From the IMG/VR virus record IMGVR_UViG_2534681991_000026: a stretch of DNA of 15,885 nucleotides. One strand, 5' to 3'. How positions within the stretch are numbered: position 1 is the first letter of the stretch; the number at the start of each line of letters is the position of its first letter. The position numbers and the translations under genes were made by a program. Below the pieces are notes generated by a model. The model saw only the letters and a list, made by a program, of their open reading frames with translations, ran no database searches and was not told the DNA's origin. Shown in pieces: positions 1 through 15,885 of this stretch. Source of the stretch: a virus (taxonomy: Duplodnaviria > Heunggongvirae > Uroviricota > Caudoviricetes).

Positions 1-165
1 ATGGCAAAGCCGATCATCACGCTCAATGGCCTAAAAATCGTCATTATGTTGGGAATGCTGGTCATTATTCTCTGCGGTATCCGTTTTGCCGCCGAGATCA
101 TCGTGCCGTTTATTCTCGCATTATTTATTGCTGTTATATATAACTTATTTCACTTAACGCATTGA
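1..165 (+). pseudogene. tqsA: 5' fragment of an AI-2 exporter TqsA/YdgG-like inner-membrane protein gene; frame ends after 54 codons
   Basis: ATG at position 1; translation [46 protein letters not shown] matches the N-terminus of enterobacterial TqsA as I recall it, then diverges (YNLFHLTH) and stops at 163-165. Hydrophobic TM-like segment. Identification is from memory, not a search. Confidence 0.5.
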
Positions 166-560
166 TTCAATTAAATAATTTACACAACAAAAAGTGCCAA
201 AAATCGCAAAATGACTACACCAGTGACTACACCGTTCGGTGCACTGTATGAAACAACGTGGAACAAATAGACACAAGAAATATAAAGGCGGGTCATCTTT
301 CCAGGGGGAAGCGCACCAATTCATGAGGGGCGTTAATGTCGATATGGGGATCCCCACCTACCGGAATTTTTGCCAGGTTAAATGTTAATCAGGCTGGTGG
401 GTTTTACATACCCTTGATCACGGTAATGATGATTCAGGTGCGTACCTTTTCCCCAGTGGGGTAAAAGCTCCAACCGTAACGATGTTCGTTGTAGTTGCCT
501 TGATGGTCTGCGTGGTCATTATGACCATTCAGCCAATGACCTTAATCAGAATTTTTCGCT

Positions 561-583
561 AAAAAATGACGTTGGCCACGTCA
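561..583 (-). terminator. Rho-independent terminator closing the leftward head/packaging operon
   Basis: Stem TGACGT(567-572)/ACGTCA(578-583) with 5-nt loop; on the minus strand the hairpin is followed by a T6 run (plus A-run 561-566). Lies about 70 nt downstream of the last minus-strand gene (stop at 655). Confidence 0.6.
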
Positions 584-654
584 TCCGGAAAGCACAAAAT
601 CACGTCGATTTTTAATGGATGGTTAAACCGTCTTTATCTCGATATCCGTACGTA

Positions 655-936
655 TTACGTACGCAGTCGTTCCGGCTTCTTCCAGTGGTACGTAATTTTT
701 GCTTTTTCCCTGTACGTCTGCACGCGGCGACGGTAGGCCAGCATTTCAAGAACGCGGATCCGTATGTTGCGCATATCCACATCATTAAGCTGGATACCAT
801 CACGGCGCATCACCTCCGCGACAACACGCGCATAATTTTCGGCGGTCACGCTGTCCGGCTGCGTGGCCTGTTCGTCATGCTGCTGGCTGATTCCAGAGAC
901 GCGGCGGATTAATCGCAGTATTTCGGCTTCTGTCAT
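655..936 (-). CDS. Hypothetical protein (93 aa) directly downstream of terL
   Basis: ORF starts 11 nt after the terL stop; TGAGGT Shine-Dalgarno-like sequence about 7 nt upstream of the ATG; same strand as the operon. No recognisable motif. Confidence 0.6.
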   Translation of the reverse strand: MTEAEILRLIRRVSGISQQHDEQATQPDSVTAENYARVVAEVMRRDGIQLNDVDMRNIRIRVLEMLAYRRRVQTYREKAKITYHWKKPERLRT

Positions 937-949
937 GCTGCTGACCTCA

Positions 950-2611
950 TTACACCCCGCTAAATTCTTCCAGTTTCTGGCGGTGGCTGTCGCTTATATC
1001 AAAAGCAAAATCCTCATGCTCTGCCTGGAATGTACCAAACGCCATCAGTGCCGCCACGCTCGGGTCTATCTTGTTCGGTGATTTTTTCTTGTTCGGCTTG
1101 ATATTGGCGTTCGCGTCACTCTGCATCACGACGTTACTCATCGACCAGGACAACACCGGATCACCACGATGCACGATAACCCTGCGGTTAACAAAAACTT
1201 CGAACGATTTCGCCGCCGGACTGAATCGAAGGTAGGTTTGCGGGAACGGCTCCACCTCAAAGCCTGCCCCCTGTAATTGCGTCCTGAGATGCGTTGCGTT
1301 CCACGTATCGAAGCCCACCAGCCTGATATTAAATTTTTCCGCGTCCTGCATGATGTCATCACGTATCCGGTCGTAATCAATGCAGTCCCCTGGCGTTGTG
1401 CGTATCCATCCCGCCCGTGCCCACTGGCGATAGATAGCGCGATTTTTATTGGCTGGGTTCTGTAACTGGAACTCCGGCAGATAATGACGGGAAACCAGCA
1501 TGATATTTTTACCGACCGGAAAGGCATAGCACACGCTGGAAATGTCGCTTGTGGATGATAAATCCAGCCCCGCGTAACATTCCTGACCGTGTAAATCTTC
1601 CTCCGTGAACTTTCCGGCGCACTCAGCCCATGCTCCGTTACCCATCCACGGGGTAGCCCCCTGACACCAGATATTAAATCGCTTTGTCATCATCTCCACC
1701 CATTGCGACGGTATGCCCCGCGCTTTCTGGATGGTTGAGGCCAGTTTTTCACGATCCACGGAAACATCAATATTAGGGTTCGCCTTTATCCACATCTCCG
1801 GATCATCAACCTCGTTTTCGTCGTCCAGTTCGTAAATCAGTACAAAAATTGAATCGTTGACCTCTTCGCCGTCCAGGATCTGGCAGCAATAATCATAGTG
1901 CTGTTTACAGGCTGAAACGACGTTGCTGCCTGATGTGGTAATGGCAAATAACAGCCCTTCGGGACGTGCCCCCATCCCCAGTTCAAGCGCAGAATAAACG
2001 CCGTTATCGGGGTGTAAGTGGTATTCGTCCACAATGGCAAGGCTGGGGTTAGTACCCTCGATGGTTGCCGCTTTTGCTGCCAGCGGCTTTAACAGGCTGT
2101 TGCTTTTCGGGTGCATCACCTTGTGGGCCTGAATATTCACTCTCTTGCGTAACGGTCGGGATAAAAGGCACATCTGACGCGCATCATCAAAAACGATCCG
2201 CGCCTGGTCGCGGCTCACCGCTGCGGTGTAAATATCCTGCTGCCCGTTCTCCATAATCAGAAACCAGTTAGCCAGAATCGCGGCTGTCGTGGATTTCGCA
2301 TTTTTGCGCGGTACTTCGATAAAGGCGCTCGTGTATTTGCGCCTTCCGGTGGCCTTAACCTTAAAGCCGAGGATGCACGCAAAGGCAAACTGCTGCCACG
2401 GTTCCAGCTCAATGGGTCTTCCACGCATCGGCCCTTTTACGTGCGGGCACACCCTGGAAAAGACAATAAACCGCTCAACAACCTCACGATCGAACATGTA
2501 AAGGGAGTTTTCAAGGTCCGAAAAGTATCGTTTAACGGCCTGTTTCAGCCGTTTACAGGCCGGAATCTTGCCCGTTTTTACGTCTTCTGCGTACTTATTC
2601 CAGGCGGTCAA
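950..2611 (-). CDS. terL: Terminase large subunit (TerL), HK97-like
   Basis: 553 aa; N-terminal ATPase region with Walker-A-like VPRKNAKST, C-terminal nuclease-like region; follows and overlaps terS by 17 nt. Confidence 0.85.
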   Translation of the reverse strand: MTAWNKYAEDVKTGKIPACKRLKQAVKRYFSDLENSLYMFDREVVERFIVFSRVCPHVKGPMRGRPIELEPWQQFAFACILGFKVKATGRRKYTSAFIEVPRKNAKSTTAAILANWFLIMENGQQDIYTAAVSRDQARIVFDDARQMCLLSRPLRKRVNIQAHKVMHPKSNSLLKPLAAKAATIEGTNPSLAIVDEYHLHPDNGVYSALELGMGARPEGLLFAITTSGSNVVSACKQHYDYCCQILDGEEVNDSIFVLIYELDDENEVDDPEMWIKANPNIDVSVDREKLASTIQKARGIPSQWVEMMTKRFNIWCQGATPWMGNGAWAECAGKFTEEDLHGQECYAGLDLSSTSDISSVCYAFPVGKNIMLVSRHYLPEFQLQNPANKNRAIYRQWARAGWIRTTPGDCIDYDRIRDDIMQDAEKFNIRLVGFDTWNATHLRTQLQGAGFEVEPFPQTYLRFSPAAKSFEVFVNRRVIVHRGDPVLSWSMSNVVMQSDANANIKPNKKKSPNKIDPSVAALMAFGTFQAEHEDFAFDISDSHRQKLEEFSGV

Positions 2612-2951
2612 GCTCGTCCTCTTCTTCTGTTTCCGGTGGATTTTTACGGCGGCTTATCGGGTCAAAACCGAGCAAAGAGGCCATTTTTATCATCACTCTT
2701 TCCGCGTCGGATTTCGCGCTTAATGCGGGGTTTCTGCTCTCTCCGCCCTGACTGTTAACAATGCTGAACCCGCGCGCCGCAAGGTCTGCGACGGCTTTCC
2801 GGTATATCGAGTAATTGACGCAATACAGTTCCAGATTACTCCAGTCGGCAGGGGTCAGGTCTCCCCGTTCCGCAAGCTGCCGCGATTTTTCCCGCCACTG
2901 CTTCACGGCGATATCATCCAGGTAGGCGGGGGCTTTCGGTGGTCTTGCCAT
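2595..2951 (-). CDS. terS: Terminase small subunit (P27-family-like TerS)
   Basis: 118 aa, MARPPKAPAYLDD...ADLAARGFSIVNSQG... typical of small terminase subunits that sit next to HNH and terL; acidic C-terminus; immediately upstream of terL. Confidence 0.75.
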   Translation of the reverse strand: MARPPKAPAYLDDIAVKQWREKSRQLAERGDLTPADWSNLELYCVNYSIYRKAVADLAARGFSIVNSQGGESRNPALSAKSDAERVMIKMASLLGFDPISRRKNPPETEEEDELDRLE

Positions 2952-3074
2952 GCTTATTTTTTCGCCAGATTATTTTTCAAAAAATTACCGTGCATAAAAA
3001 TTTGGGGAGGCGTTCGGTTCTGGGCGGGGTCGGGTTCGTCCTGAAAACTCCCCCCACCCCGTCCGGCTGCCTCA
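2952..3074. other. Putative cos / packaging-site region between the HNH-side genes and terS
   Basis: 123-nt non-coding gap; G-rich tract (GGGAGGCG...TGGGCGGGGTCGGG...CTCCCCCCACCCC, 3004-3060) with partial inverted symmetry. HNH-cos-terS is the usual layout in HK97-like cos packaging modules. Inference only. Confidence 0.35.
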
Positions 3075-3248
3075 TCAGCGATTGCGGAAACATTCCATAA
3101 CCTCGCGGTCACGGTCGTTTAATCGCGTCGCTGTGATGCGTTCTGCGCGTCCTGATGCTTTATCTTTATGCCCTGCTTCCTGTGCCTTCCATGCGTCACG
3201 CTGCCTTATAAGTCCACGGATAAGGCGGTTTTGTTCCCGCTCATTCAT
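3075..3248 (-). CDS. Small basic hypothetical protein (about 57 aa) between HNH and terS
   Basis: ORF MNEREQNRLIRGLIRQRDAWKAQEAGHKDK...; ATG overlaps the HNH stop (ATGAATGA). No strong SD; the longer upstream extension in the ORF track overlaps HNH out of frame and is probably not translated. Confidence 0.3.
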   Translation of the reverse strand: MNEREQNRLIRGLIRQRDAWKAQEAGHKDKASGRAERITATRLNDRDREVMECFRNR

Positions 3249-3681
3249 CAGCGCCATACATCCAGTTATTGCGGTTAGCGCCCCGTTCTTCCTCCTCACG
3301 GAATCCACCCGCAGCACGCTTGTTTTTTGTGGACGGATCAAGCCATTTCGTTTTCTGGTTATGACACGCCTGGCACAATGGCTGATGATTCCACTCAGGC
3401 CAGAAGAGAACATCATTACCGCCATCGATTGGGATAATGTGATCCACCACCACGGCGGGCGTGTATATTCCTTTTTCCAGGCAATGCGCACATAACGGGT
3501 TTTTACTCAGATACATGGCGCGGTATTTCTCCCACTGCCTCGTATACCCTCGCTCCCTGCTGCTGCCTCTCCGGCTGTCCTGCTGCTGGCGTGCGCTGCG
3601 TCTGTGCTCCTCACACTTGCCGGACTTCACGCGCCTGTTGCAGCCTGGTTCTGTACATCGTCTTAATGGTTGCCACGGCAT
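3241..3681 (-). CDS. HNH endonuclease (terminase-associated)
   Basis: 146 aa; Cys-rich N-terminus (CTEPGCNRRVKSGKCEEH), HNH-like core (DHIIPIDGGND...NHQPLCQACHNQKT); position just before terS as in HK97-like packaging modules. Confidence 0.85.
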   Translation of the reverse strand: MPWQPLRRCTEPGCNRRVKSGKCEEHRRSARQQQDSRRGSSRERGYTRQWEKYRAMYLSKNPLCAHCLEKGIYTPAVVVDHIIPIDGGNDVLFWPEWNHQPLCQACHNQKTKWLDPSTKNKRAAGGFREEEERGANRNNWMYGADE

Positions 3682-3974
3682 CAGTACACCCCCACATCAC
3701 GGTAAGCCGTCCAGAGTGCGCCAATCGTCATGGGTACGTGTGTTTTTGCGTTATCCGCGACAATCTGGCGATTTTCATACAGGTGAGCGATAAACATCAT
3801 GCAGCCAATCTTTATGGCTGGCGTGAACTCCAGCCCGTCATCAAAGCGCCTGCCTATGTGTATCTGGCACGCCTCAAGCGATGCGGCAATGTATCCGCTG
3901 ATTAACTGGTCTTCATCGTCGCCATCGATGCGGCAATGGAGTTTCACTTCTTCCAGGGTGATAAGTTCTGTCAT
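3681..3974 (-). CDS. Head-tail connector protein (gp6-like)
   Basis: 97 aa, MTELITLEEVKLHCRIDGDDEDQLISGYIAAS... typical N-terminus of the gp6-like connector family; start overlaps the upstream stop (ATGA). Confidence 0.7.
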   Translation of the reverse strand: MTELITLEEVKLHCRIDGDDEDQLISGYIAASLEACQIHIGRRFDDGLEFTPAIKIGCMMFIAHLYENRQIVADNAKTHVPMTIGALWTAYRDVGVY

Positions 3975-4309
3975 TTTTCCGCGCCCTCACTACAAAGAAT
4001 TTCAAGGCGTGTCCTGGCGGCATCTGGCAGCGGTTGCCCGATGATATTCAGTACACGCCCCGCCAGCGGCCCCGTATTGACCTTTATCCGACTGGTGGCG
4101 TTGATGTCCTTCCGGTAGCGTATCCATATCCTTACAGTTCCAGTCGCCAGCTCTGCACCTGATGAAATGGCCTCCTTGCTGCTGATCATGTTCACGCTTG
4201 CCCAGAGTGTGTGACCGTCCACCCACGTTTCGAGTATTTCGCCCGTCATGGCTCTGGTCTGTTTCAGGGTCTGAATCGTTACCCTGTCACGCAGTCGCCC
4301 TATGTTCAT
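3971..4309 (-). CDS. Head-tail joining / head closure protein
   Basis: Start taken at internal ATG (MNIGRLRDRVTIQ...) because it forms an ATGA overlap with the portal stop; family-typical N-terminal motif. The ORF track's 4351 start would overlap portal by 46 nt. Confidence 0.65.
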   Translation of the reverse strand: MNIGRLRDRVTIQTLKQTRAMTGEILETWVDGHTLWASVNMISSKEAISSGAELATGTVRIWIRYRKDINATSRIKVNTGPLAGRVLNIIGQPLPDAARTRLEILCSEGAEK

Positions 4310-5517
4310 TCCGGTTTTTCTCCCTCGCTGATTTTTACTTCCTGTTTCCATGCCTGGCTGAACTCATCACCACCATCACGCGGTGACAGTCCTTCACGTT
4401 CGCGGGCTTCGTTCGGACACATAACGCCGGATTTGATGCCGCGCTCATAGGTGGCAAAGCGTTCGCCAGGTGTGGCCCGTAACAGGTCCGCGCTGTCAAA
4501 CTCCACCTGATACCGGATACCAGGTACAGGCGAGGCCACCAGCAGGGCGTTTTTTATCTGCTGCTCAAAGTTCGCCAGCCACGGGCGCATCGTCATGGTG
4601 AGAAATGCGCGGCTTGCCTCGCTGAAATTGCTGTAGGTGCTGTTGCTGTATTCCTGCAAAAAAATCGGCGAGACGTTGAACATTCGGGCGATGTCTTCAA
4701 TGGTGAAGCGACGGGAGGCCAGCCATTCAGCATCCTGATTACTCATGCCCAGCTGCTGATAGCTCATACCCCCTTCAAGGATGGGCGTTTTTCCGGCGTT
4801 TCTGGCCCCTTTGTAGCGTTCCAGTGCGGCTAATGCCTGTTTGCCCTTCACGCCGTCCAGCCATTCGCCTGACGTGATAACCCCTGCCGCCATCATGCCA
4901 TCACGCATCACGCTCGCGCCGTGGCGTTGTTGGGCCAGCCCAAGCCCCAGCGATTCGCGGCAAATGGTTACAGGTGAGCGCCCCATAAAACCGTCATCCG
5001 TGGAGTAACGAAGGTGGAGAACCTCCCACGGTAAATAGTTGCGGGTGTTTCCGGTGTAAGCGTCAGTGATGCAGTAGCGCCAGTTGTGTTCTCCTGTCTG
5101 CTCCACGTTCACCGACTGCGGCGGGTAAGGATGTAAAGCCGCCGGAAAACCATCACGCCCCCACTGAATCACCGCGTAAGCATTACCGTTTAACAGGCAG
5201 TGGCGGATCATCATTCGCTTAAACTGGTAGGGAGTCTGCCACGCGTTCGGGCGCTCGTTGAGGATGTGATCGACCGGATGAGAATCAAGCCACTCGCGGG
5301 CCTCCTTCCCCTTCTCATTGCGTACCAGGTACAGGTAGCATGGCATAGTAGCCACCGCCTCAGAGATGACCGTGACGGCGTTCATGACGGCGGGGAGTGA
5401 TTCCGCTGTCCCCGATGATACGTACTCACCCGCCCCCGTGTTCGATGTGCCAGCCAGCGCCATAAATTCATCAAGCGTCATGCTGCGCTGCTCTTTTTTT
5501 CTTCTGAAAGGCCACAT
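4306..5517 (-). CDS. Portal protein, HK97 family
   Basis: 403 aa; size and position (after protease, before connector genes); GGGGGTG SD-like sequence 5 nt upstream of the ATG at 5517, which sits 1 nt after the protease stop. Confidence 0.8.
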   Translation of the reverse strand: MWPFRRKKEQRSMTLDEFMALAGTSNTGAGEYVSSGTAESLPAVMNAVTVISEAVATMPCYLYLVRNEKGKEAREWLDSHPVDHILNERPNAWQTPYQFKRMMIRHCLLNGNAYAVIQWGRDGFPAALHPYPPQSVNVEQTGEHNWRYCITDAYTGNTRNYLPWEVLHLRYSTDDGFMGRSPVTICRESLGLGLAQQRHGASVMRDGMMAAGVITSGEWLDGVKGKQALAALERYKGARNAGKTPILEGGMSYQQLGMSNQDAEWLASRRFTIEDIARMFNVSPIFLQEYSNSTYSNFSEASRAFLTMTMRPWLANFEQQIKNALLVASPVPGIRYQVEFDSADLLRATPGERFATYERGIKSGVMCPNEAREREGLSPRDGGDEFSQAWKQEVKISEGEKPE

Positions 5518-5518
5518 A

Positions 5519-6076
5519 TCACACCCCCGCTAAATCCGCCCACCAGCGGCGATTATCCGCACGCGGCATTTTTTCGGGGTGCTGCTCATACAGGGAACGG
5601 CGGGCCAGCTCCACGCCGGAATCGGGGTAAGCCGGTACGGATGTAACGGTAATTTCGTACAGTTCCGCCACCAGCACGGTGCGCACGCATGGATCTGTTG
5701 TGGTATCCCATACATCCTTACGGGAACGAAAGCCAAAGCTCATGCCGGATATATCACCACGTTTAACCAGTTCGATAACGTCACGCCCTGTGCTGGTATC
5801 CGGTGGGGTAAGTTCAAAGCGTAACCCTGTGTCGTCCTCTTCCAGTTTCAGCGTGCCAGAACGGGTGCGCCCCAGTAACATGCTGTGGTCATGCTCATAC
5901 AGGCCGCGAACGTCATTACCCGCCGCAAGCCACTCAGTAAACGCCCCCCGCTGGAATTTTTCGTAAAACTCCCCCCATAACAGTTCCGAAAGGTTATCCC
6001 AGCGAACAACGTAACCCGTCAGCGTGTTGCTGGCGCTGGTGGTGATTTCCGATGACCGGATTTCCATACTCTTCAT
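5519..6076 (-). CDS. Prohead (maturation) protease, HK97 family
   Basis: About 185 aa from the ATG at 6076 (MKSMEIRSSE...); the ORF track's longer form starts at a GTG (6190) inside the capsid gene. Lies between capsid and portal genes. Confidence 0.75.
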   Translation of the reverse strand: MKSMEIRSSEITTSASNTLTGYVVRWDNLSELLWGEFYEKFQRGAFTEWLAAGNDVRGLYEHDHSMLLGRTRSGTLKLEEDDTGLRFELTPPDTSTGRDVIELVKRGDISGMSFGFRSRKDVWDTTTDPCVRTVLVAELYEITVTSVPAYPDSGVELARRSLYEQHPEKMPRADNRRWWADLAGV

Positions 6077-6131: not shown

Positions 6132-7289
6132 TTAATCGTCGTCCTGTGGCAGTTCCAGAATCTTGATCGCGTTCGAATCCACCACGCCACCGCCTAAATA
6201 TTTCTGCGTGAAAATTTTGATGAATCCTGGTTCTGTCAGGTTGTCCGGTCTGGTGCGAACACCCGTTTCGTGATCAACAATGTAGTAACCGCGTTTGAAG
6301 TCACCCAGGGCAATAACGTTATCCGGCATAAACTCCAGATATTCGACCGGAAGGCCCAGCAACGTATCAGGATCACCAGCCTGTAAACGGTCGCGCCAGA
6401 TGTAATCACCGTTCGCGTTCTTCACCTTCTGAAGTTTTGCCGCCGTCGTGGAGTTAACCACCCAGACCGCGTTTTTGCGGTATTTTTTACGTAATGCAAA
6501 TTTCAGGTCGATCAGCGGGTCCGCAGATGTCCACGCAAGAGACTCAGAAGGCTTAATTACCTGCAACGTACCAAAATCACGTTCTTTGTCGTTCTTCTCT
6601 GCACGGGGTACGGATAAAAAGCCTTTTGCTTTTTTGTCACCGTCGCCCACAACCAGATCGCTTTCTTCGGTTTCCGTGAAGGTGTCGCCAATCTCACCCG
6701 TCAGCCATGAAAGGATGTCCACATCGGAAAAATCCACGATTTCCTGTGTGGTGCGCGGGTACGCATAGACCGGATACAGCTTAATGCTCACCTCGTTAAT
6801 CTGCGGGGTGCTGGTCTGTTCGCGTGCCTTACCCTCTTCACCGTGGTTAACGGTCGCACCGCCAGCGGAAACAAGCTGCTTAAACTCGTTGCTGCTGATT
6901 TTCTTCACGGTACAGATGCGGCGCATGGTGGATTCATCCGCCAGCATTCGCATGATTTCGGTGTTCAGCTCGGGGATAACGGTATAACCACCATCAGCGG
7001 GAACGCCTGTACTTAATGCGCGGGTTTCACCCGTCAGAATGTAGTTTCGTAGTTCTGCGGGGTCAGTGGTCTGGCTGCTTTTACCTGGCTTGCTGCGCTC
7101 TTCGTCTGCAATGGCTTCAAGGCGGGAAATGTCTTTATCGAGGGATTCAGCTTTAGCGCGTAATTCGTCAAATTTTGCGCCCTCTGCATCGTTAAGGCTG
7201 CGGTTTTCTTTTTCCGCGTTCTCCAGCATGTCGCGCATCTGATTTTTAATGGCGGTTTTCTGCTGGCGTAATTCGATTATTCTCGGCAT
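6132..7289 (-). CDS. Major capsid protein, HK97 fold, with N-terminal coiled-coil (delta/scaffold-like) domain
   Basis: 385 aa; charged coiled-coil-like N-terminal ~100 aa (ELRQQKTAIKNQMRDMLENAEKENRSL...) followed by a capsid-like body; first gene of the head operon. Confidence 0.8.
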   Translation of the reverse strand: MPRIIELRQQKTAIKNQMRDMLENAEKENRSLNDAEGAKFDELRAKAESLDKDISRLEAIADEERSKPGKSSQTTDPAELRNYILTGETRALSTGVPADGGYTVIPELNTEIMRMLADESTMRRICTVKKISSNEFKQLVSAGGATVNHGEEGKAREQTSTPQINEVSIKLYPVYAYPRTTQEIVDFSDVDILSWLTGEIGDTFTETEESDLVVGDGDKKAKGFLSVPRAEKNDKERDFGTLQVIKPSESLAWTSADPLIDLKFALRKKYRKNAVWVVNSTTAAKLQKVKNANGDYIWRDRLQAGDPDTLLGLPVEYLEFMPDNVIALGDFKRGYYIVDHETGVRTRPDNLTEPGFIKIFTQKYLGGGVVDSNAIKILELPQDDD

Positions 7290-7540: not shown

Positions 7541-7570
7541 AAAATGACAAAAAGCCGGATTGCTCCGGCT
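7541..7570 (-). terminator. Rho-independent terminator after the 74-aa ORF
   Basis: Stem AGCCGGA(7553-7559)/TCCGGCT(7564-7570), loop TTGC; followed on the minus strand by a U-rich stretch (plus A-rich 7541-7552). Confidence 0.6.
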
Positions 7571-7580
7571 GTATGGGTGC

Positions 7581-7899: not shown

Positions 7900-7924
7900 C
7901 AAAAAAAGCCGGATTTCTCCGGCT
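7900..7924 (-). terminator. Rho-independent terminator after the PerC-like gene
   Basis: Stem AGCCGGA(7907-7913)/TCCGGCT(7918-7924), loop TTTC, preceded on plus by an A7 run (U-tract on minus). Stem sequence is identical to the terminator at 7553-7570. Confidence 0.65.
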
Positions 7925-9289: not shown

Positions 9290-9530
9290 TGCACCTCCTC
9301 TACCTCTCTACCTAATCATCTTTCAGGTCAGTAATGGCGCGGCTTTCAGATGGGTAGAGGGCTTTCGTGGCCCTCTACCCATCATCTACCCGCCCCTCAC
9401 AAACAACCTTAATCATGGTGGAGGGGGTAGAGGGCTTTTATTTGCCTTCTACCAGCCCCTCTACCCACTTATCATATTGAATAATGTATATTTATTTTCT
9501 TTAGGTAGAAGAGGTAGAGGGCTTTTGTCT
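9290..9530. repeat. Iteron array flanking an AT-rich stretch; putative replication origin
   Basis: At least 8 copies of the core GGTAGAG(GGC)/(GCC)CTCTACC in both orientations (about 9298, 9306, 9354, 9373, 9386, 9426, 9459, 9505, 9514), including a perfect 11-bp inverted pair GGGTAGAGGGC(9352-9362)/GCCCTCTACCC(9370-9380); AT-rich 9467-9503. Directly 3' of the primase gene. Confidence 0.6.
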
Positions 9531-9534: not shown

Positions 9535-11289
9535 TTATAAAAACGCGTCGCAATCCTCTGTTGTTGTCACATTGGTTTGCGTAAGTCCTTTAACCCTGCG
9601 CGTTATATATTCACATCCGTAAACTTTTGCCGCTGGCTTCATGGCCTTGCTGAAATCAGCCACGTTTAGCGGCTTGCTTCTTCCTGCGTATGCCATAAAC
9701 GCCAGATAGACGCGGTAAAGGCTGTTTCTGGTCGTGTACTTCACGGAATCGCCACCGCCACCCATCATCAGGCCGCGCGCTTCCTCCAGAAAATTCAGGA
9801 ACTGGCAAAACTCAATAACCGGATCCGTCTGTTGCTTTATTGCCAGTGCTTCATCACCGTCGCGCTGTTCCAGGAGTAAAGCCCGTGCCTTTTCAGGGTC
9901 GGCAAAGTTCGCCAGTAATCGGCGGATAATCACAGGGATTTCAGCCGCGACCTTCTCCGGCAAATCCTTGTCCTTTTCTGCCTCGCTAACGATATTGTCA
10001 AAGCGAAAAATAACCCGACGACGTGCCACGCCTCCGGCCCGTTCGGTGAATATCATCGGGTTGTTGTTGGTCGTCAGCACCACCGCCCTGATTACCGCCG
10101 TGAAACGCTTTTCATATTTCGGGTTAATTTCCACGGGGTCGCCGCCCGTGATTTTCTTGATGCCCGTTCCTTCGCCTGTATATTTCGGCTGGTCTGCCAG
10201 GACGATAAGACGACTCCCGACAACCTGCGCACGTCCACCAGCATCATCAAGCGATGTCATTTCAGCGCTTACCGTGTTCTGTTTCCCTGCCAGAAGGCTG
10301 GCTATGTGCGTGAATGTACTTTTACCGCTTCCGCCGTCTCCGGTGGCCTCAATAAACATCTGCCAGTCGTACCGGTTCGCCATAATCATGTACAGCGCGG
10401 CACATATACGCATCATCTTGCGCGGGTCTTTTCCGGCTGCGTGCTCAAGGCATTTATGAAAATTTGGCGCGTTATCGCGGATGTTCTCCCCTGGTGCTGG
10501 TGGCGTGTACTCAATACCGTTGTGCGTGGTGATCCAGTTCTCCGGCGTGTGCGGGGAAAATTCCCCCGTTTTCAGGTCAAGCGCACCATTGGCGAACGGC
10601 AACAAATCGCCGGACGGCTCGCCCATTGGTTCGGCAATAACTTTTAACGCTTCAACGGCGTTATTGATTACGCGCTTGCTGAAAGTGGCCCTGTGCTCTG
10701 AATAGATCGCCACCATTTCGCGGCTAAGTTCCATTGTGCTGACCGGACACCATAACCCGCCGCGCCATACGTGAACGATTTCACTTTCAGGATGTACGCA
10801 AACGCCATCAAAGCGATCGGAAAGCAGCTGAGCGCGTTCACTGTCCGCCATCTGCGAAAGTTGCGCCTTTTGCTTTACCGGAAGCTCAACGAACAGACCT
10901 TCAGAAAGATTCTGGCGCTCACGGGCCAGATATTCGCGCCAGTTCTCCACCTCCTGAACGTGCATTCCCTCAGGGTAAAAATTTGCATCCTGTACACCTG
11001 CCGCCGCCAGCTTCTGACCAATCGCCTTTATCATTACAGGTTCAAGATGTCCGGCCCTGAATATGCGTACTGATTTTCGGCCTTCCGGCACAATTTGCAG
11101 CTTATCCAGTTCGGATAACTGCTGATCCCCAAGCCACACAGGAGGCTCATTATCTCCGGCCATACGCGCGTCATGTTCCTGCCATTGTTTAGCGTGTGAC
11201 CAGGCATCACTACCCGCAAAAATAATGACTTCTGTTTCTTTGTGTTTTATGCCGCGTGACTGCTGTTTTACGTTCGGTGCAAGTTTCAT
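9535..11289 (-). CDS. Replication protein: P4-alpha-like primase/helicase
   Basis: 584 aa; N-terminal primase-like region and C-terminal NTPase with Walker A GDGGSGKST; typical of satellite and PICI replication modules; start overlaps the upstream gene (ATGA). Confidence 0.8.
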   Translation of the reverse strand: MKLAPNVKQQSRGIKHKETEVIIFAGSDAWSHAKQWQEHDARMAGDNEPPVWLGDQQLSELDKLQIVPEGRKSVRIFRAGHLEPVMIKAIGQKLAAAGVQDANFYPEGMHVQEVENWREYLARERQNLSEGLFVELPVKQKAQLSQMADSERAQLLSDRFDGVCVHPESEIVHVWRGGLWCPVSTMELSREMVAIYSEHRATFSKRVINNAVEALKVIAEPMGEPSGDLLPFANGALDLKTGEFSPHTPENWITTHNGIEYTPPAPGENIRDNAPNFHKCLEHAAGKDPRKMMRICAALYMIMANRYDWQMFIEATGDGGSGKSTFTHIASLLAGKQNTVSAEMTSLDDAGGRAQVVGSRLIVLADQPKYTGEGTGIKKITGGDPVEINPKYEKRFTAVIRAVVLTTNNNPMIFTERAGGVARRRVIFRFDNIVSEAEKDKDLPEKVAAEIPVIIRRLLANFADPEKARALLLEQRDGDEALAIKQQTDPVIEFCQFLNFLEEARGLMMGGGGDSVKYTTRNSLYRVYLAFMAYAGRSKPLNVADFSKAMKPAAKVYGCEYITRRVKGLTQTNVTTTEDCDAFL

Positions 11290-11585
11290 TTTTTACCCCT
11301 GAATACGTTCAACATCTTTCTTATTTCCTGAATATTGGCGCGTGCTTTCTCCCTGCTGGTGGGCACGTTACGCGGTACAGCCTGCACCAGAGAAAAATCA
11401 CGGTCGAACTGATAAACAGGCATAACGCAATCATATTCGTAGCCTTCACGGCGGTAAGTTACGCGCCGTTCCTCCACGCCCTTAATCATTACCGTGCCGC
11501 CGTACTTATCGCGGTAAATATCCCCGCACATGAATTTAGTGCGAGTTTTTCCGCTGGCAGTTAAGCCAGGATATTTAAGTTTCAT
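11286..11585 (-). CDS. Hypothetical protein (99 aa)
   Basis: ORF immediately upstream of and overlapping the primase start; same strand. Confidence 0.5.
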   Translation of the reverse strand: MKLKYPGLTASGKTRTKFMCGDIYRDKYGGTVMIKGVEERRVTYRREGYEYDCVMPVYQFDRDFSLVQAVPRNVPTSREKARANIQEIRKMLNVFRGKK

Positions 11586-12264: not shown

Positions 12265-12469
12265 ATCTTAACTCCACTGAACTTACGTATTTACACGGGT
12301 TTCCTTTTACCTGTCGCACACGGTAGGAATCGTTTTTAATCACTTCCGCTATTTGCCCAAACTTTTTTACCGCTGTACGGCGGCTCTTGTAGCGGTAAGT
12401 GTTTATCTCCCTTCTGCTCATTACCGCTTCATTGTGATATCTGGTTATCACTATCAGCACTTCAAACAT
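12251..12469 (-). CDS. Hypothetical protein (about 72 aa)
   Basis: Start taken at ATG 12469 (MFEVLIVITRYHNEAVMSRREIN...), overlapping the upstream icd-like stop as ATGTTTGA; alternative starts at 12499 or 12421. Confidence 0.4.
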   Translation of the reverse strand: MFEVLIVITRYHNEAVMSRREINTYRYKSRRTAVKKFGQIAEVIKNDSYRVRQVKGNPCKYVSSVELRYVAE

Positions 12470-12632
12470 GACGCACCCCCTGACGAATACGGGCGACAAA
12501 AATCAGATGTGCGCGCGGCAACTGGGCGCGGGCTTCGCGTTCAGTGGCTGCGGTAACGGTGTAAATATCAATGCTGCTGTGGTGGCACTGCATAAAGCGC
12601 CAGACAAAGTAAGGGCGTGCGGATACAGCCAT
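12462..12632 (-). CDS. Icd-like small protein, paralog 2 (56 aa)
   Basis: MAVSARPYFVWRFMQ...TEREARAQLPRAHLIFVARIRQG; GGGAG SD about 8 nt upstream of ATG 12632; paralogous to 12919-13116. Resembles the small Icd-like proteins annotated in P4-like prophages (from memory). An in-frame upstream extension to 12926 exists with no stop. Confidence 0.45.
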   Translation of the reverse strand: MAVSARPYFVWRFMQCHHSSIDIYTVTAATEREARAQLPRAHLIFVARIRQGVRHV

Positions 12633-12918
12633 GTGAAAGGCTCCCAATTTAATGTTAAGGGGTCTCACCACTACGCTGCTAAACGGGGTGGCGAGACGTA
12701 ACAGGGTTAGCAGACTGGCAAATTGGGAAACCAGCGAGCGCAAAGGCTCCCCCGTTACGCCCCGCCATAATGCGGGTATGGGTAGGTTTACGGACACAAA
12801 AAAACCGCTTATCGGATATGGGCGGCTGTCCGCCAATTTATTCAGGCTGCTAAACCCGGTCGCCATGTGGGCGACGGGGGAAGCATACAGCCCCGTGATA
12901 ATTTTTTGCAAGCGGTTT

Positions 12919-13116
12919 TTACGCATGATGTGACCCCTGACGAATACGAGCGGCAAATACAGCAACACAACCTGACGGGCAACGGCTACGCGCTTCGCGT
13001 TCCGTCCAGGCGGTTACGTGGATGATTTGAGATTCTCCGGCACTCAGGGCCAGAAAACGCCACACAAAGGCCGTTTGTGTGTGTACAAGGTGTGGTATAT
13101 GATTTACGGCAACCAT
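12919..13116 (-). CDS. Icd-like small protein, paralog 1 (65 aa)
   Basis: MVAVNHIPHLVHTQTAFVWRFLALSAGESQIIHVTAWTEREARSRCPSGCVAVFAARIRQG; AGGAG SD 5-6 nt upstream of ATG 13116; first gene of the leftward early operon. Confidence 0.5.
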   Translation of the reverse strand: MVAVNHIPHLVHTQTAFVWRFLALSAGESQIIHVTAWTEREARSRCPSGCVAVFAARIRQGSHHA

Positions 13117-13206
13117 AACGGCTCCTAGTTTACGTTGTTGGTTAGAAGCCCCGTTACTGCTCCTACAGTGCGGGGCTTTGCTCTTTGTATTTCAACAATC
13201 CTTTTG

Positions 13207-13239
13207 GTGTGTTTCATGTTATGGACACATGAAACACAC
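13207..13239. promoter_or_regulatory. Operator-like perfect inverted repeat in the divergent control region
   Basis: GTGTGTTTCATG(13207-13218)-N9-CATGAAACACAC(13228-13239); a third half-site GAAACACAC at 13276-13284 abuts a -10-like TATACT (13270-13275) upstream of the plus-strand gene at 13306. Confidence 0.55.
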
Positions 13240-13305
13240 GTCAAGGCTTTTTGTATTTCTTTTTTTGTGTATACTGAAACACACCGATGATTAGGAGTTT
13301 CAGAA

Positions 13306-13611
13306 ATGGCAACGGCTAACAAAAACGCAAAATCACAACTGACAACCGTCAGAGTCCCACTAGATGTTATGCAAGGGATGGAATCCGTTAAGCTGGACGG
13401 CGAAAGCAATGCCGGATTTATCGTAACCGCCATGCGCGGTGAAATCGCCCGCCGCCAGGCAGAAGGAAGCGGAGAAAATCCCCTTGTGTCTTCACTGGAT
13501 GCTTTGGCTAAGGTCGAACAAATTGGCATCAAGGCAGCGGAGGATATCGGGCAGCTTGTCACCGTTGCACGCGAAGAACTCCAGCGTCGCAAGACCCAAG
13601 AATCAGAATAA
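13306..13611 (+). CDS. Putative small DNA-binding regulator (101 aa), possibly ribbon-helix-helix
   Basis: ATG 13306 with AGGAG SD 9 nt upstream and a -10-like element; only clearly supported plus-strand gene inside the element; TTVRVPLDVMQGMESV suggests a beta-strand then helix as in RHH regulators (weak). Divergent from the leftward operon. Confidence 0.5.
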   Translation: MATANKNAKSQLTTVRVPLDVMQGMESVKLDGESNAGFIVTAMRGEIARRQAEGSGENPLVSSLDALAKVEQIGIKAAEDIGQLVTVAREELQRRKTQESE

Positions 13612-13940
13612 TCACTATCAGCGCCGTGGCGTGAGGTACTACGGCGCATTGCTTTACAGGCGCACACAATGACCAACGAAGAATCAACCGAAAAAACATC
13701 ACCTGCACGAAAAAGACGACGCAGAAAGAAAGAGCATGAATCAGAACGATTCGCGCCGTGTTCTTTTGCCCTTGAGAAGTACCTTAAAGAATACTCATCA
13801 AAGGAGAGAGCTTCGCAGTTATGGCAACGCACTGAACCAGACTGATTGCATTGCACACCAGCCTGATAGCGGCTATCATCCCCGTGCTTATGTTTGGGAT
13901 CACACACACAAACTGCGCAGCGGGTTATCTGTTCAGAAAG

Positions 13941-13968
13941 GCGGCTCCATTTCGGGGCCGCTTTTTTT
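13941..13968 (+). terminator. Strong rho-independent terminator of the rightward transcript
   Basis: GCGGCTCC(13941-13948)/GGGGCCGC(13954-13961) stem (one G-U pair), 5-nt loop, followed by T7 (13962-13968). Confidence 0.7.
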
Positions 13969-14114
13969 ATGCCTGAAAAACTCCAATTTTGTTGTTTTTC
14001 AGTTTCACCAGGGCGAACGAATCCCTGCCCACATTCGGGCGTATATTCAATCTTCATGGTTATAGCTCTGTGTTCAGATGATTGATGTGTGGCGGCTGCG
14101 TGCCGCCAGCGTGA

Positions 14115-14303
14115 TTAATGAACTGCCTTGCAGCTATCCTTCCAGGCCAGAACCTCGGATAAAGACCAGCCAACGGAACGACCGCCAAGTTTACGACGTG
14201 ATGGGAATTGTCCGGCCTTTTCCATGCGGTAGCGACACGTACGGCTAAGGCCGGTTAGTTTTTCGCATTCTTTTTCACGTATAAACCGATCAGTGCTTAA
14301 CAC
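14115..14303 (-). CDS. alpA: AlpA-family phage regulatory protein
   Basis: 62 aa; ...EKLTGLSRTCRYRMEKAGQFPSRRKLGGRSVGWSLSEVLAWK... matches the AlpA HTH pattern (compare E. coli AlpA ...LGVKSVGWIEAEIDEWL); directly downstream of int as in P4-like elements and PICIs. Confidence 0.85.
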   Translation of the reverse strand: MLSTDRFIREKECEKLTGLSRTCRYRMEKAGQFPSRRKLGGRSVGWSLSEVLAWKDSCKAVH

Positions 14304-14453
14304 TATTGCCCCCTTTCGTTTCTTAAAGAGTCATCAGGTGTCTTATTGTGTCGTATTGTTCCCGCTAGAGTGATGAATGGCAAATGTTGGTGGCGCATGG
14401 TTTACAGAAAGAGGAATAATCAGGATAAAATCATTTAAATTCATGTTAATACA

Positions 14454-14487
14454 AAGGCATAAAATCTCGTTTTATGCCTTTTTTCTC
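14454..14487. terminator. Terminator-like hairpin between int and alpA (possibly bidirectional)
   Basis: AAGGCATAAAA(14454-14464)/TTTTATGCCTT(14470-14480), loop TCTCG; T-run TTTTCTC on plus and U-rich flank on minus. Confidence 0.5.
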
Positions 14488-14575
14488 ACGCTTTAAAGCG
14501 TGATTCGCTAATGTATAAAAAACCAGTAATATAATAAAAATCAGCAACTTATAAATCTGTATGCTTTTTCGCCTC

Positions 14576-14625
14576 TTGTTCGTGATTGTTCCACGTTGTT
14601 GCACATTGTTTCACGTTGTATCTGT
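14576..14625. repeat. 10-bp phased tandem repeat (nCACGTTGTT-like) downstream of int
   Basis: TTGTT recurs at 14576, 14586, 14596, 14606 (then TTGTA at 14616) with exact 10-bp spacing; units cgtgaTTGTT, ccacgTTGTT, gcacaTTGTT, tcacgTTGTa. Contains GTTCCACGTTGTT (14588-14600), the reverse complement of the motif at 252-264 and 7505-7517. Confidence 0.6.
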
Positions 14626-14667
14626 TCGCATATCCAGTATGCGCATACTGAAAAAACCCGAAAAAAA

Positions 14668-15885
14668 TTATTTTCTTCTGGCTACGGGTAGCGTGGTTAC
14701 GTTTTCATGTGCTCCCGCCAGTATCCCTAACCGCTCCGTCCACATATCCAGCGCATCACGTTTCGCATCCAGATAACGGGAATGGTTATAGACTCGTTGC
14801 ATCCCTGGCATCTGATGACCTGTAAGCTGCTCCACGACGTGAGGATCCGCGCCTAAATCGTTCAGCATCGTTGTAAAGGTGCGCCGGATGTCATGCAGTG
14901 ACCATTGAGGGTGTTTTAGCCTCCTGTGCGCTAATCTGCCGTACTGCGATACGCTGGCCTCCTGTTTCACTTCCCCCAGCAATAAGCCCGTGTGCCTGTT
15001 CTGCTCCACCAGCTTCATGACAAACGGCAGGATCGCTTCCGGTATGGGCCGGAATATTGCGACCTTCGTTTTGCTGTGCTCCTTCGGAACGGTCCATAGC
15101 ATTTCCGTAAAATCCCACTCCCCGATCTCCGATAACCTCAGTTCTACCGTTCTGGCACCGAAGACAATCAGGAGGCGGATTAACGCGACGTAGTAAGGGG
15201 AAAATATTTTTTTATCCAGTGCCTGCAATAACTCGCCAAGTTCTTTGGTGCTTAAGACACGCTCGCTTATATCCGGTTTTTTCCCAACGTCCGCAACGTT
15301 CAGATCGTCCAGAACGTTGCTGATTGCATAGCGCCGCCTACGGCAGAACTTAAGCGCCTGTTTGCACGCCTGTAGCACGAATCCGGCAGTAACAGGCGTT
15401 CGCTTTGCCACCTGGTCAAAACAAGCCAGCCAGTGCCGTAGCTCGCATTTATCCAGCGGCATAGCACCAATGTGCTGTATTACGTGATTATTAAGTCGCC
15501 TTTTCAGGGCGATATAATCCACGCGGTTTTCCTTTACGTAAGACTCAAGCCAGTAGGTAAGCGCATCGCCAACCGTTACGGGCTTTAACGCTTCCTGTAC
15601 GGTGTAATTCATCTCATGACGTGGATTTTTCCCCTCAGCCAGCCATGCGCGACACTGTGCGGCTTTTTCCCTGGCTGCTTTCAGGCTCAGATCAGGATAA
15701 CTTCCCAGCTTAATGCGTTCGGGTCGTGTCTCCCTTCCCGTTCCGGCCCTGTATGTGAAATACCATGTTAATTTCCCTGATGTTAAATATTTCACGCTCA
15801 GGTTTCCGCCATCACTATAAAACGTGTTTTTCTCAGCTGGCTTACCATGAAGTTTCCTTAGCAATGTATCGCTCAGTTTGTTCAT
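14668..15885 (-). CDS. int: Tyrosine recombinase / integrase, P4 family
   Basis: 405 aa; P4-type N-terminus (MNKLSDTLL...FYSDGGNLSV), catalytic-domain motifs (HDIRRTF, ...RVYNHSRY); start codon at the window edge, so the cognate att site is expected just beyond 15885. Confidence 0.9.
   Translation of the reverse strand: MNKLSDTLLRKLHGKPAEKNTFYSDGGNLSVKYLTSGKLTWYFTYRAGTGRETRPERIKLGSYPDLSLKAAREKAAQCRAWLAEGKNPRHEMNYTVQEALKPVTVGDALTYWLESYVKENRVDYIALKRRLNNHVIQHIGAMPLDKCELRHWLACFDQVAKRTPVTAGFVLQACKQALKFCRRRRYAISNVLDDLNVADVGKKPDISERVLSTKELGELLQALDKKIFSPYYVALIRLLIVFGARTVELRLSEIGEWDFTEMLWTVPKEHSKTKVAIFRPIPEAILPFVMKLVEQNRHTGLLLGEVKQEASVSQYGRLAHRRLKHPQWSLHDIRRTFTTMLNDLGADPHVVEQLTGHQMPGMQRVYNHSRYLDAKRDALDMWTERLGILAGAHENVTTLPVARRK

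Follow-up and report, generated by a model that had tools for sequence, protein, structure and literature searches.

We analyzed a window of 15,885 nucleotides (the whole of the IMG/VR virus record IMGVR_UViG_2534681991_000026) that had been predicted, from its letters, to hold a satellite with a full set of head and packaging genes. The window is 100% identical to sequence from E. coli O103:H2 FWSEC0007 (NZ_CP031908.1), and several genomes of O103 and related STEC carry the same element at 100% identity. Table 1 lists its features. All of the genes that the original prediction named (the integrase, alpA, the primase/helicase, SSB, and the head and packaging genes) were recovered by profile searches with Pfam or NCBIfam.

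Table 1. Features of the O103:H2 element, in window numbering. The last column gives identity to the EcCIEDL933 counterpart.
Feature	Position	Strand	Evidence	Identity
5' part of the host's AI-2 transporter gene tqsA, which the insertion interrupts	1-137	+	RefSeq annotation	
attL core TGCTGTTAT	129-137		read directly from sequence	
Tandem pair of TGACTACACC repeats, probable arm-type sites for the integrase	212-233	+		
Conserved 93-aa ORF downstream of terL	655-936	-	phrog_1561, E = 2.5e-56	89%
TerL, large terminase	950-2611	-	Pfam TerL_ATPase, E = 1e-26; TerL_nuclease, E = 1e-49	96.9%
TerS, small terminase, P27 family	2595-2951	-	Pfam Terminase_4, E = 1e-23	100%
Candidate cos region, conserved 23-nt block GGGGTGGGGGGAGTTTTCAGGAC	3038-3060	-		same block present
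Conserved 60-aa ORF (orf60) between HNH and terS	3075-3257	-	phrog_3173, E = 5e-34	91.7%
HNH endonuclease, terminase accessory for cos cleavage	3241-3681	-	Pfam HNH, E = 9e-8	87.7%
gp6-like head-tail connector/adaptor	3681-3974	-	Pfam Phage_connect_1; TIGR01560, E = 8e-27	97.9%
Head-closure (head completion) protein	3971-4309	-	Pfam Phage_HCP, E = 6e-23; TIGR01563 gp16_SPP1	94.6%
Portal	4306-5517	-	Pfam Phage_portal, E = 2.5e-90	99.3%
Prohead serine protease (S78, HK97 family)	5519-6076	-	Pfam Peptidase_S78, E = 6e-48	99.5%
Major capsid protein, HK97 family	6132-7289	-	Pfam Phage_capsid, E = 1.6e-61	99.5%
PerC-family transcriptional regulator, accessory	7931-8203	-	Pfam PerC, E = 2e-40	
SSB, single-stranded DNA-binding protein	8214-8624	-	Pfam SSB, E = 4e-16	
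Candidate replication origin	9297-9520		11 GGTAGAGG-type iterons, both orientations, around an AT-rich stretch	
Primase/replicative helicase, 584 aa	9535-11289	-	Pfam D5_N, DUF5906, Pox_D5	
DUF4222 protein, homologue of OI-51 RgdR	11286-11585	-	Pfam DUF4222	90.9%
C4 antisense RNA	12684-12772	-	Rfam RF01695, 74 bits (gathering score 45)	
a1/b1-type C4 RNA target	12839-12888	-	Rfam RF03163, E = 1e-9, 45.5 bits (narrowly under the gathering score of 46.7)	
Icd-like cell-division inhibitor	12919-13116	-	NCBIfam NF033153, E = 6e-18	
YlcI/YnfO-family protein	13306-13611	+	NCBIfam NF041551; phrog_6522, E = 8e-63	
AlpA regulator/excisionase-type helix-turn-helix protein	14115-14303	-	Pfam Phage_AlpA, E = 1e-16	98.4%
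Tyrosine integrase, P4-type	14668-15885	-	Pfam Arm-DNA-bind_3, Phage_integrase; RefSeq 409 aa	90.5%
attR core TGCTGTTAT, 188 nt past the window end	16073-16081		read directly from sequence	

Gene content and boundaries

The eight head and packaging genes all lie on the minus strand, in order from capsid to TerL, and all of them score above the Pfam gathering scores. Given these scores, we rejected the idea that they are chance open reading frames. The conserved block GGGGTGGGGGGAGTTTTCAGGAC is situated between HNH/orf60 and terS and is present in 40 related loci. Furthermore, LR881103.1, which is a linear record for a related induced particle, terminates exactly on this block. The conservation of the block and the terminus of LR881103.1 suggest that the cos site is probably between HNH and terS. 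A caveat is that LR881103.1 is one deposited record, and its terminus could be an assembly convention.

The original prediction also placed an origin of replication beside the primase gene, and we found iterons there. The window contains 16 matches to GGTAGAGG (with at most one mismatch), and 11 of these, including all six of the exact matches, fall within 9297-9520, directly past the primase stop codon. This clustering supports the identification of the region as a candidate origin. The C-terminal domain of the primase belongs to the P4 family (TIGR01613, E = 1.6e-29).

Turning to the regulatory genes, the RgdR homologue has CGD in place of RGD at residues 20-22 and carries ED1a-type substitutions. 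Besides the Icd-like gene in Table 1, there is a second Icd-like copy at 12462-12926, which RefSeq annotates as frameshifted. Within the window, only two genes of the element are annotated on the plus strand (13306-13611 and 13736-14065). (We also noticed a minus-strand open reading frame at 13125-14057, of 310 amino acids, which is 72% identical over 188 amino acids to a 247-amino-acid hypothetical gene of EcCIEDL933. RefSeq annotates the two plus-strand genes in this region instead, and there is strong support for the YlcI/YnfO call.)

We then examined the ends of the element. It had been predicted to begin at a junction near position 138, and indeed an att core ends at 137. The prediction also called for a second att copy beyond 15885, and this copy is present in the FWSEC0007 genome. 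The element lies between these 9-bp direct repeats (TGCTGTTAT), is inserted precisely within tqsA, and is 15,944 bp long, rather than the approximately 15.7 kb that was originally estimated. The window is missing attR and the first four codons of the integrase, whose annotated start is 12 nucleotides past the window end. Homology to intact tqsA picks up again exactly at the att core, with tqsA continuing 188 nucleotides past the window end. If the flanks are joined with one copy of the core, tqsA is restored in full and matches many genomes at 100% identity; among 5,426 complete E. coli genomes, this site is unsplit in 5,165, and roughly 260 have a split tqsA. (In the O103:H2 STEC lineage, the insertion of the island splits tqsA, an AI-2 transporter gene, and would inactivate it.) There is no tRNA in the window and the target is a protein-coding gene, so we rejected integration at a tRNA.

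A pair of TGACTACACC repeats identical to the one near attL lies at 15923-15944, outside the window and adjoining attR. The four exact copies of TGACTACACC are found only at the two ends of the element, and as many as 6 matches were seen in 0 of 100 shuffled sequences. These repeats are probably arm-type sites that the integrase would bind.

The element was predicted to lack tail and lysis genes, and profile searches found none of them inside it. Annotated genes account for 84% of the element, and the longest gap between them is 517 bp, so there is no space for tail or lysis genes. We also looked for these genes beyond the window, where RefSeq annotates none; for 12 kb in each direction there are core genes, with mdtJ/ydgV flanking one end and pntB the other. 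With tqsA resuming and core genes on both flanks, we rejected an ordinary prophage that runs past the window. A self-sufficient tailed prophage was also rejected, as the tail and lysis modules are absent. Among the small ORFs of the element, profiles for tail, lysis, and defence proteins had no matches, PADLOC identified no defence genes, and the PHROG hits were confined to families of unknown function.

Comparison with EcCIEDL933 and other cf-PICIs

EcCIEDL933 from E. coli O157:H7 EDL933 (also known as CP-933C, O-island 51, or Sakai Sp7) is the prototype of the capsid-forming PICIs (cf-PICIs). From the integrase to terL, the O103:H2 element has the same architecture and gene order. The two are 94.9% identical at the DNA level over 7,980 bp, which comprises the packaging module, PerC, and SSB, and the proteins of the packaging module are 88-100% identical (Table 1). 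The ORFs of this module have the same lengths in both elements, except that the annotated start of the protease differs by 5 codons.

Other parts of the two elements differ. EcCIEDL933 is inserted between phoQ and roxA, instead of inside tqsA, and the core sequences differ. The O103:H2 primase is of the D5_N/DUF5906 type (584 amino acids), whereas EcCIEDL933 has a DUF927-type protein of 710 amino acids; only the C-terminal 163 amino acids are common to both, at 79% identity. The small genes between the primase and alpA are also different, and the O103:H2 element adds the C4 RNA, a second Icd-like cassette, and a 101-amino-acid ORF at 8634-8939. Conversely, it lacks the repeat array that the EDL933 element has at its left end, and its RgdR homologue has CGD where EcCIEDL933 has RGD. 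This illustrates the mosaicism of the family, with a nearly identical head module joined to an attB, a primase, and a regulatory cassette that differ.

EcCIEDL933 has been characterized by mutagenesis and electron microscopy, which showed that it makes its own small capsids, packages itself, and depends on its helper's tails (10.1101/2022.09.08.507074). It is induced by the phages HK106 and HK446, and eliminating alpA stops induction. Mutating any of the packaging genes abolishes transfer, except for one hypothetical gene whose mutation reduces transfer severely. Its capsids measure 46 x 42 nm, and mutations in the helper's tail genes abolish transfer (all from bioRxiv 10.1101/2022.09.08.507074). 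A search of the running text of papers gave no match for a PICI linked to tqsA.

The lifestyle, gene order, and wide distribution of cf-PICIs were published in 2022-23 (10.1101/2022.09.08.507074; PMC10085698). The O103:H2 element shows no deviation from the definition in those papers, and it has the size and gene content that the published family criteria call for (PMC10085698; 10.1101/2025.02.11.637232). Specifically, all 11 of the core components are present (integrase, regulator, primase-replicase, capsid, protease, portal, head-tail adaptor, head-tail connector, HNH, TerS, and TerL), which makes it "Type A" (PMC10085698), and the forbidden classes, tails and holins, are absent. It has an integrase at one end, AlpA, its own primase-replicase, and a candidate origin; it is bounded by att repeats; and its size is inside the 10-18 kb range of cf-PICIs. 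So, the original call of a cf-PICI-like satellite holds: the element is a close sibling of EcCIEDL933 and a member of an already known family. It adds little beyond one annotated and precisely delimited example, and it does not represent a new type of element.

Relatives of the packaging module are present in 538 of the 5,426 complete E. coli genomes. With coverage of at least 80%, 421 genomes have the same tail-less layout, which occupies two or more attB sites. At the tqsA site, both of the occupants that we inspected are cf-PICIs; the second, from a clinical strain that is unrelated, has the same design but has diverged. In the phage collection, four capsids are 58-66% identical to that of the O103:H2 element, and the others among the matches listed are at most 40% identical. 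For three of the four, the record spans just 3.8-16.5 kb, and the two for which we read the annotation, LR881103.1 and OR544139.1, both have the cf-PICI gene layout. The relatives in IMG/VR are mostly prophage predictions from isolate genomes, so they do not count as evidence for packaged particles.

The head and packaging proteins belong to families that are shared with HK97-like cos phages that have an HNH-assisted terminase. However, the O103:H2 element lacks the tail, lysis, and lysogeny-repressor modules of those phages, and among the matches listed, the capsids of bona fide phages are at most 40% identical to its own. Its gene order, capsid-protease-portal-closure-connector-HNH-TerS-TerL, also differs. 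(In HK97, the order is TerS-TerL-portal-protease-capsid-connector.) This inverted order had been pointed out in the original prediction; the order itself stands, but it is a conserved hallmark of the family and not a peculiarity of this copy.

The element also resembles P4, in that it has a P4-type integrase with an arm-binding domain, an AlpA-like regulator, a P4-family domain at the C terminus of the primase, and an RNA of the C4/CI/isrK clan. P4 reshapes the capsids of P2 via Sid, Psu, and Delta, and it carries its helper's cos site. In contrast, the O103:H2 element has its own capsid, portal, and terminase, and general (not targeted) scans with Pfam, PHROG, and NCBIfam gave no match to Sid, Psu, or Delta.

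A predicted life cycle

Overall, we consider it very probable that the window contains a nearly whole cf-PICI, whose P4-type tyrosine integrase inserted it within the tqsA coding sequence. Because its module proteins are so similar to those of EcCIEDL933, the O103:H2 copy would also make small capsids, package itself, and use a helper's tails. By the same homology, we predict how it is induced, the size of its capsids, the position of its cos site, and the source of its tails. A helper phage would turn on alpA. The element would then excise and replicate from the iteron origin, using its own primase/helicase and SSB. The capsid, protease, portal, head-closure, connector, HNH, TerS, and TerL genes would be expressed as a single minus-strand operon, and their products would form small, island-specific capsids of the HK97 type. 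The element's own terminase (TerS, TerL, and HNH) would package island DNA, probably from the cos site between HNH and terS. Finally, its own head-closure and connector proteins would attach the filled heads to the siphovirus tails of the helper, which would also supply lysis.

Some of these steps may differ from the prototype. Because the primase is of another type, replication and possibly helper dependence may be different. Also, tail specificity is governed by the adaptor and connector proteins (10.1101/2025.02.11.637232), and HNH and the head-closure protein are among the less similar proteins of the module, so the compatible helper cannot be read from the sequence. More generally, phage tails are all that cf-PICIs require for their spread, and the tail-less capsids that they make can take the tails of other species' phages.

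Alternative explanations

We considered four other readings. First, the element may be a natural chimera that arose by exchange of modules between classical PICIs and cf-PICIs, although we think this is unlikely. It may combine a capsid and packaging module of the EcCIEDL933 type; a left arm of the ED1a type, with the tqsA-directed integrase and the CGD form of RgdR; a different P4-family primase and origin; and a P1-immI-like C4 RNA/Icd cassette that is absent from the prototype. EcCIED1a is a classical E. coli PICI that is described as having no capsid or packaging module (we compared it by its description only). The related element of ED1a sits between ydgD and ydgG, which is tqsA, in the same neighborhood as the O103:H2 element (PMC3378721), and the O103:H2 RgdR homologue has 5 of the 6 ED1a-specific substitutions. 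If the element is such a chimera, then the C4/Icd cassette could link its induction or interference to P1-like phages instead of lambdoid helpers. Phage P1 was recently reported to induce another cf-PICI (10.1101/2025.02.11.637232).

Second, the element might descend from a cf-PICI but now be immobile in O103:H2, with no compatible helper; it would be retained for its RgdR-like and PerC-like regulators, or it would not have decayed yet. We consider this quite improbable. None of the 17 resident prophages of EDL933 is an efficient helper (10.1101/2022.09.08.507074), OI-51 aids LEE expression and colonization via RgdR (PMC3378721), one Icd-like gene is a pseudogene, and identity across several O103 and related STEC genomes fits vertical inheritance. 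But the genes for integration, replication, and packaging are all intact; the att sites, arm repeats, and origin iterons have been kept; and related elements at the same attB in unrelated strains imply recent mobility.

Third, a complete HK97-like phage could have lost its tail and lysis modules and left a degraded, cryptic prophage, which is how OI-51/CP-933C was described (PMC3378721). The head genes do fall in phage families. This reading is largely refuted, and we give it very little credence: neither att repeat is damaged and joining the flanks restores the empty site exactly, the packaging ORFs (apart from the start of the protease) have the lengths seen in a functional prototype that is mobile and builds its own capsids, and the tail-less layout recurs across hundreds of genomes at more than one attB site. 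The gene order and the low similarity to the capsids of bona fide phages also argue against it.

Fourth, the element could be a satellite of the classical PICI or P4-like kind, one that remodels and uses its helper's capsids and whose head genes are only interference factors, but we consider this extremely improbable. The integrase, AlpA, the P4-family domain of the primase, the Icd-like genes, and the C4/CI-clan RNA are indeed shared with such elements, and the related element of ED1a, which adjoins ydgG/tqsA, is named as a classical PICI (10.1101/2022.09.08.507074; PMC3378721). But the O103:H2 element has a full set of head and packaging genes with its own terminase, including a TerL, which classical PICIs lack; its portal, connector, and adaptor genes are forbidden for PICIs in SatelliteFinder (PMC10085698); no hijacking protein was matched by those untargeted searches; and in the prototype, which is 95% identical, the same genes build the capsids and transfer requires them (10.1101/2022.09.08.507074).

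Within a Shiga-toxin E. coli lineage, the element bears regulators of the RgdR and PerC types, relatives of which influence type III secretion. These regulators and the split tqsA are modest points about the biology of the strain.

Gene content and likeness to EcCIEDL933

By every criterion that sequence can test, the element is a capsid-forming phage-inducible chromosomal island (cf-PICI), and its defining module is 95% identical to that of the prototype, EcCIEDL933. This supports the original prediction of a cf-PICI-like satellite. Alqurainy et al. defined cf-PICIs from EcCIEDL933, a 15.4-kb island that runs int, alpA, rep, and then major capsid, protease, portal, head-tail connectors, HNH, TerS, and TerL, with no tail genes. 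EcCIEDL933 is induced by phages HK106 and HK446 (alpA is needed), makes its own capsids (46 x 42 nm), and imposes no cost on the helper. Mutating any of its packaging genes abolishes transfer completely, except for one hypothetical gene, whose mutation reduces transfer severely. Mutations in the helper's head or terminase genes have no effect on transfer, and mutations in its tape-measure or major tail genes abolish it (all from bioRxiv 10.1101/2022.09.08.507074). cf-PICIs release tail-less capsids, and adaptor and connector proteins set which phage tails they can use (10.1101/2025.02.11.637232). The cfPICI model of SatelliteFinder has 11 core components, forbids tails and holins, and found 969 cfPICIs, in 13% of Enterobacteriaceae genomes (PMC10085698).

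We checked the gene calls against Pfam and NCBIfam (see table). These searches confirmed the int, alpA, primase/helicase, SSB, capsid, protease, portal, HNH, TerS, and TerL genes, as well as the two connectors, that had been called from the sequence alone. In the part of the element that the window covers, RefSeq places every gene but two on the minus strand, and the packaging genes form one operon, from the capsid through a 93-aa ORF (orf93). The primase/helicase also matches TIGR01613 ("phage/plasmid primase, P4 family"; E = 1.6e-29), slightly below the curated cut-off. The proposed origin next to this gene is supported by a cluster of 11 GGTAGAGG-type iterons, in both orientations, which flank an AT-rich stretch immediately past the primase stop codon. 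All six exact matches to GGTAGAGG in the window fall in this cluster.

Features of the element and its surroundings (genes in transcription order, then other features; positions are in the window unless a locus is named)
Feature	Position	Strand	Evidence	Protein identity to EcCIEDL933
Integrase		minus	Pfam Arm-DNA-bind_3 + Phage_integrase	90.5%
AlpA		minus	Pfam/NCBIfam, E 1e-16	98.4%
Icd-like protein			Pfam/NCBIfam	
Several small ORFs, function unknown				
DUF4222 protein, 99 aa	11286-11585	minus	profile match	
Primase/helicase, 584 aa			D5_N, DUF5906, Pox_D5	
Two small ORFs				
SSB			profile match	
PerC-family regulator	7931-8203	minus	profile match	
Major capsid			Phage_capsid, 1.6e-61	99.5%
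S78 prohead protease			5.8e-48	99.5%
Portal			2.5e-90	99.3%
Head-closure protein			Phage_HCP, 5.6e-23; gp16_SPP1	94.6%
gp6-like connector			2.1e-12; TIGR01560, 8e-27	97.9%
HNH endonuclease			profile match	87.7%
60-aa ORF				
TerS			Terminase_4, 1.3e-23	100%
TerL			ATPase 2.4e-26, nuclease 8.6e-50	96.9%
93-aa ORF (operon end)				
Truncated "pheromone autoinducer 2 transporter" (part of tqsA)	1-144		annotation	
Other part of tqsA	L001 28073-28979 (remainder picks up at 28074)			
TGCTGTTAT repeat, copy 1	129-137		junction reading	
TGCTGTTAT repeat, copy 2	L001 28073-28081		junction reading	
GGGGTGGGGGGAGTTTTCAGGAC block	3038-3060	minus		
AAAAAGCCGGATTNCTCCGGCTGT repeats	7549-7575; 7903-7929			
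Small ORF by first AAAAAGCCGGATTNCTCCGGCTGT repeat	7581-7805			
Iteron cluster	9297-9520			
P1-immI-like cassette	12462-13116	minus		
C4 antisense RNA	12684-12772	minus	Rfam RF01695, 74 bits vs gathering score 45	
a1/b1-type target	12839-12888	minus	45.5 vs gathering score 46.7 bits	
310-aa ORF	13125-14057	minus		
YlcI/YnfO	13306-13611	plus	RefSeq, strongly supported	
Hypothetical gene	13736-14065	plus	RefSeq	
EcCIEDL933 repeat array	L002 11260-11720			

In EDL933 (NZ_CP120944.1), the packaging module matches a single locus along its entire length, with 95.6% identity. This is the EcCIEDL933 locus (L002); phoQ and roxA flank it, and its genes come in the same order. Aligning the two elements with BLAST gave a match of 7,980 bp, spanning orf93 to SSB, with 94.9% identity. 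Given these DNA identities and those of the proteins, the window element is, at the sequence level, a close sibling of a known and experimentally dissected island. By homology, it would be induced, form small capsids, and steal tails as EcCIEDL933 does. This type of element is already known, and the remaining points are minor: a mosaic left arm, the disruption of tqsA, a C4 RNA/Icd cassette, an RgdR variant, and a candidate cos block.

In phage HK97, the order is TerS-TerL-portal-protease-capsid-connector, and HNH lies beside cos at the opposite end of the genome. The order in the window element is capsid-protease-portal-closure-connector-HNH-TerS-TerL. Calling this order inverted, as the original prediction did, is accurate, but it is not a peculiarity, since this layout has been published as the conserved one in proteobacterial cf-PICIs (10.1101/2025.02.11.637232; 10.1101/2022.09.08.507074). 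Capsid first and terminase last is a hallmark of the family and nothing new.

The best capsid matches in the phage collection are 58-66% identical (four records, three of them only 3.8-16.5 kb). We read the annotations of two of these, vB_KppS-Ant and Pasteurella Pmp8, and both show the cf-PICI layout. The remaining phage capsids among the matches listed are at most 40% identical. These values agree with the published identity of under 40% between cf-PICI proteins and their phage homologues (10.1101/2022.09.08.507074). Both records were deposited as phages: "Escherichia phage vB_KppS-Ant" (LR881103.1, L057 1-16548; 16.5 kb) and "Pasteurella phage Pmp8" (OR544139.1, L058 1-15321; 15.3 kb). According to the record annotations, the former has a 2.3-kb putative "tape measure" gene past terL and the latter a small putative "tail terminator" gene.

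Boundaries and insertion into tqsA

Over all 15,885 nt, the window matches the chromosome of E. coli O103:H2 FWSEC0007 (NZ_CP031908.1, reverse strand) with 100% identity, and the same is true of several further genomes from O103 and related STEC. Of the complete E. coli genomes examined (5,426), 128 contain 80% or more of the window. To read the flanks, we added 12 kb on each side in FWSEC0007 (locus L001, where window position x is position x + 12000). Core genes lie to the left (ynfM, asr, ydgD, mdtIJ, and ydgV) and to the right (pntBA and ydgH).

Reading the junctions directly, we found a 9-bp direct repeat, TGCTGTTAT, at both. The predicted junction near 138 was correct, and the second att copy that was sought beyond the window is there, 188 nt past its end. 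From the repeat positions, the element is 15,944 bp. (The earlier estimate of about 15.7 kb was 0.2 kb too small because the window stops short of attR and of the integrase's first four codons.) Joining the flanks with one copy of the core gives intact tqsA, with 100% identity to the gene in many genomes; the site is unsplit in 5,165 of the 5,426 genomes. A separate search against intact tqsA placed the start of homology precisely at the core. Just within each end of the element are two tandem copies of TGACTACACC; the four exact copies are restricted to the ends, and the total of six matches was reached by no shuffle. These are probably arm-type sites for the integrase. In an unrelated clinical strain, this tqsA site holds another cf-PICI, which is more diverged; its integrase region is 96.9% identical.

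The predicted absence of tail and lysis genes also holds. The ten small unassigned ORFs have PHROG matches only to families of unknown function (and no PADLOC defence model matched them), 84% of the element is taken up by annotated genes, and the widest gap is 517 bp. Given this and the core genes on both sides, an ordinary prophage with contiguous tail and lysis genes beyond the window is excluded.

Because the island interrupts the AI-2 transporter gene tqsA at about codon 46, there is probably no functional TqsA in this O103:H2 lineage.

A mosaic left arm

The window element differs from EcCIEDL933 in its attB: the former is inside tqsA, with TGCTGTTAT as the core, while the latter is in the phoQ–roxA intergenic region, with a core of about AAATATGTCC. 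The primases also differ (D5_N/DUF5906 type versus DUF927 type) and have only the last 163 residues in common, at 79% identity. The small genes between primase and alpA are mostly different. Within this interval, a segment of about 430 bp contains a C4 antisense RNA, an a1/b1-type target, and a second, frameshifted Icd-like ORF; with the first Icd-like ORF, these make up a P1-immI-like cassette. A search for C4 in EcCIEDL933 and in the tqsA island of strain CREC7837 gave no match at the gathering score. The cassette recurs in 116 complete E. coli genomes.

The DUF4222 protein is a homologue of RgdR (ECs1581), an activator of LEE/type III secretion that is encoded on OI-51, which is EcCIEDL933 (PMC3378721). 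It has five of the six substitutions that mark the inactive ED1a variant (PMC3378721): D10A, R20C (CGD for RGD), Q27K, H45R, and R61D, with K35 retained. The published mutants do not allow its activity to be predicted. The related ED1a element was placed beside ydgG, which is tqsA (PMC3378721). Also, classical PICIs share four of the six attB sites used by cf-PICIs, and EcCIED1a is named as a classical PICI (10.1101/2022.09.08.507074). Based on these published descriptions of the ED1a element, the window element may combine a head module of the EDL933 type with a left arm of the ED1a type.

The 310-aa minus-strand ORF overlaps the two RefSeq plus-strand genes. Over 188 aa, it shares 72% identity with a hypothetical gene (247 aa) that lies downstream of alpA in EcCIEDL933, and there is a recombination breakpoint near 13605. 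The PerC-family gene (named PchE-like in the OI-51 paper) sits between the replication and head modules; relatives in this family activate LEE in EPEC and EHEC. Downstream of this gene and of a small ORF are two near-identical 27-nt hairpin-forming repeats, AAAAAGCCGGATTNCTCCGGCTGT, which probably serve as minus-strand intrinsic terminators ahead of the head operon. At its left end, between attL and orf93, EcCIEDL933 has an array of about 450 bp of imperfect 60-80-nt repeats containing ATCAACCAGTTACCGCGCC, which the window island lacks.

A candidate cos site

Between the 60-aa ORF and terS there is a block of 23 nt, GGGGTGGGGGGAGTTTTCAGGAC, that is kept in 40 related loci, including islands whose capsids are only 66-69% identical. 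The linear vB_KppS-Ant record, described as an "induced prophage" and containing the cf-PICI gene set, begins 22 nt ahead of terS and terminates exactly on this block. The block's conservation and this terminus suggest a cos site, although the ends of the record could be an assembly convention. A candidate cos at this position fits an HNH-assisted cos terminase.
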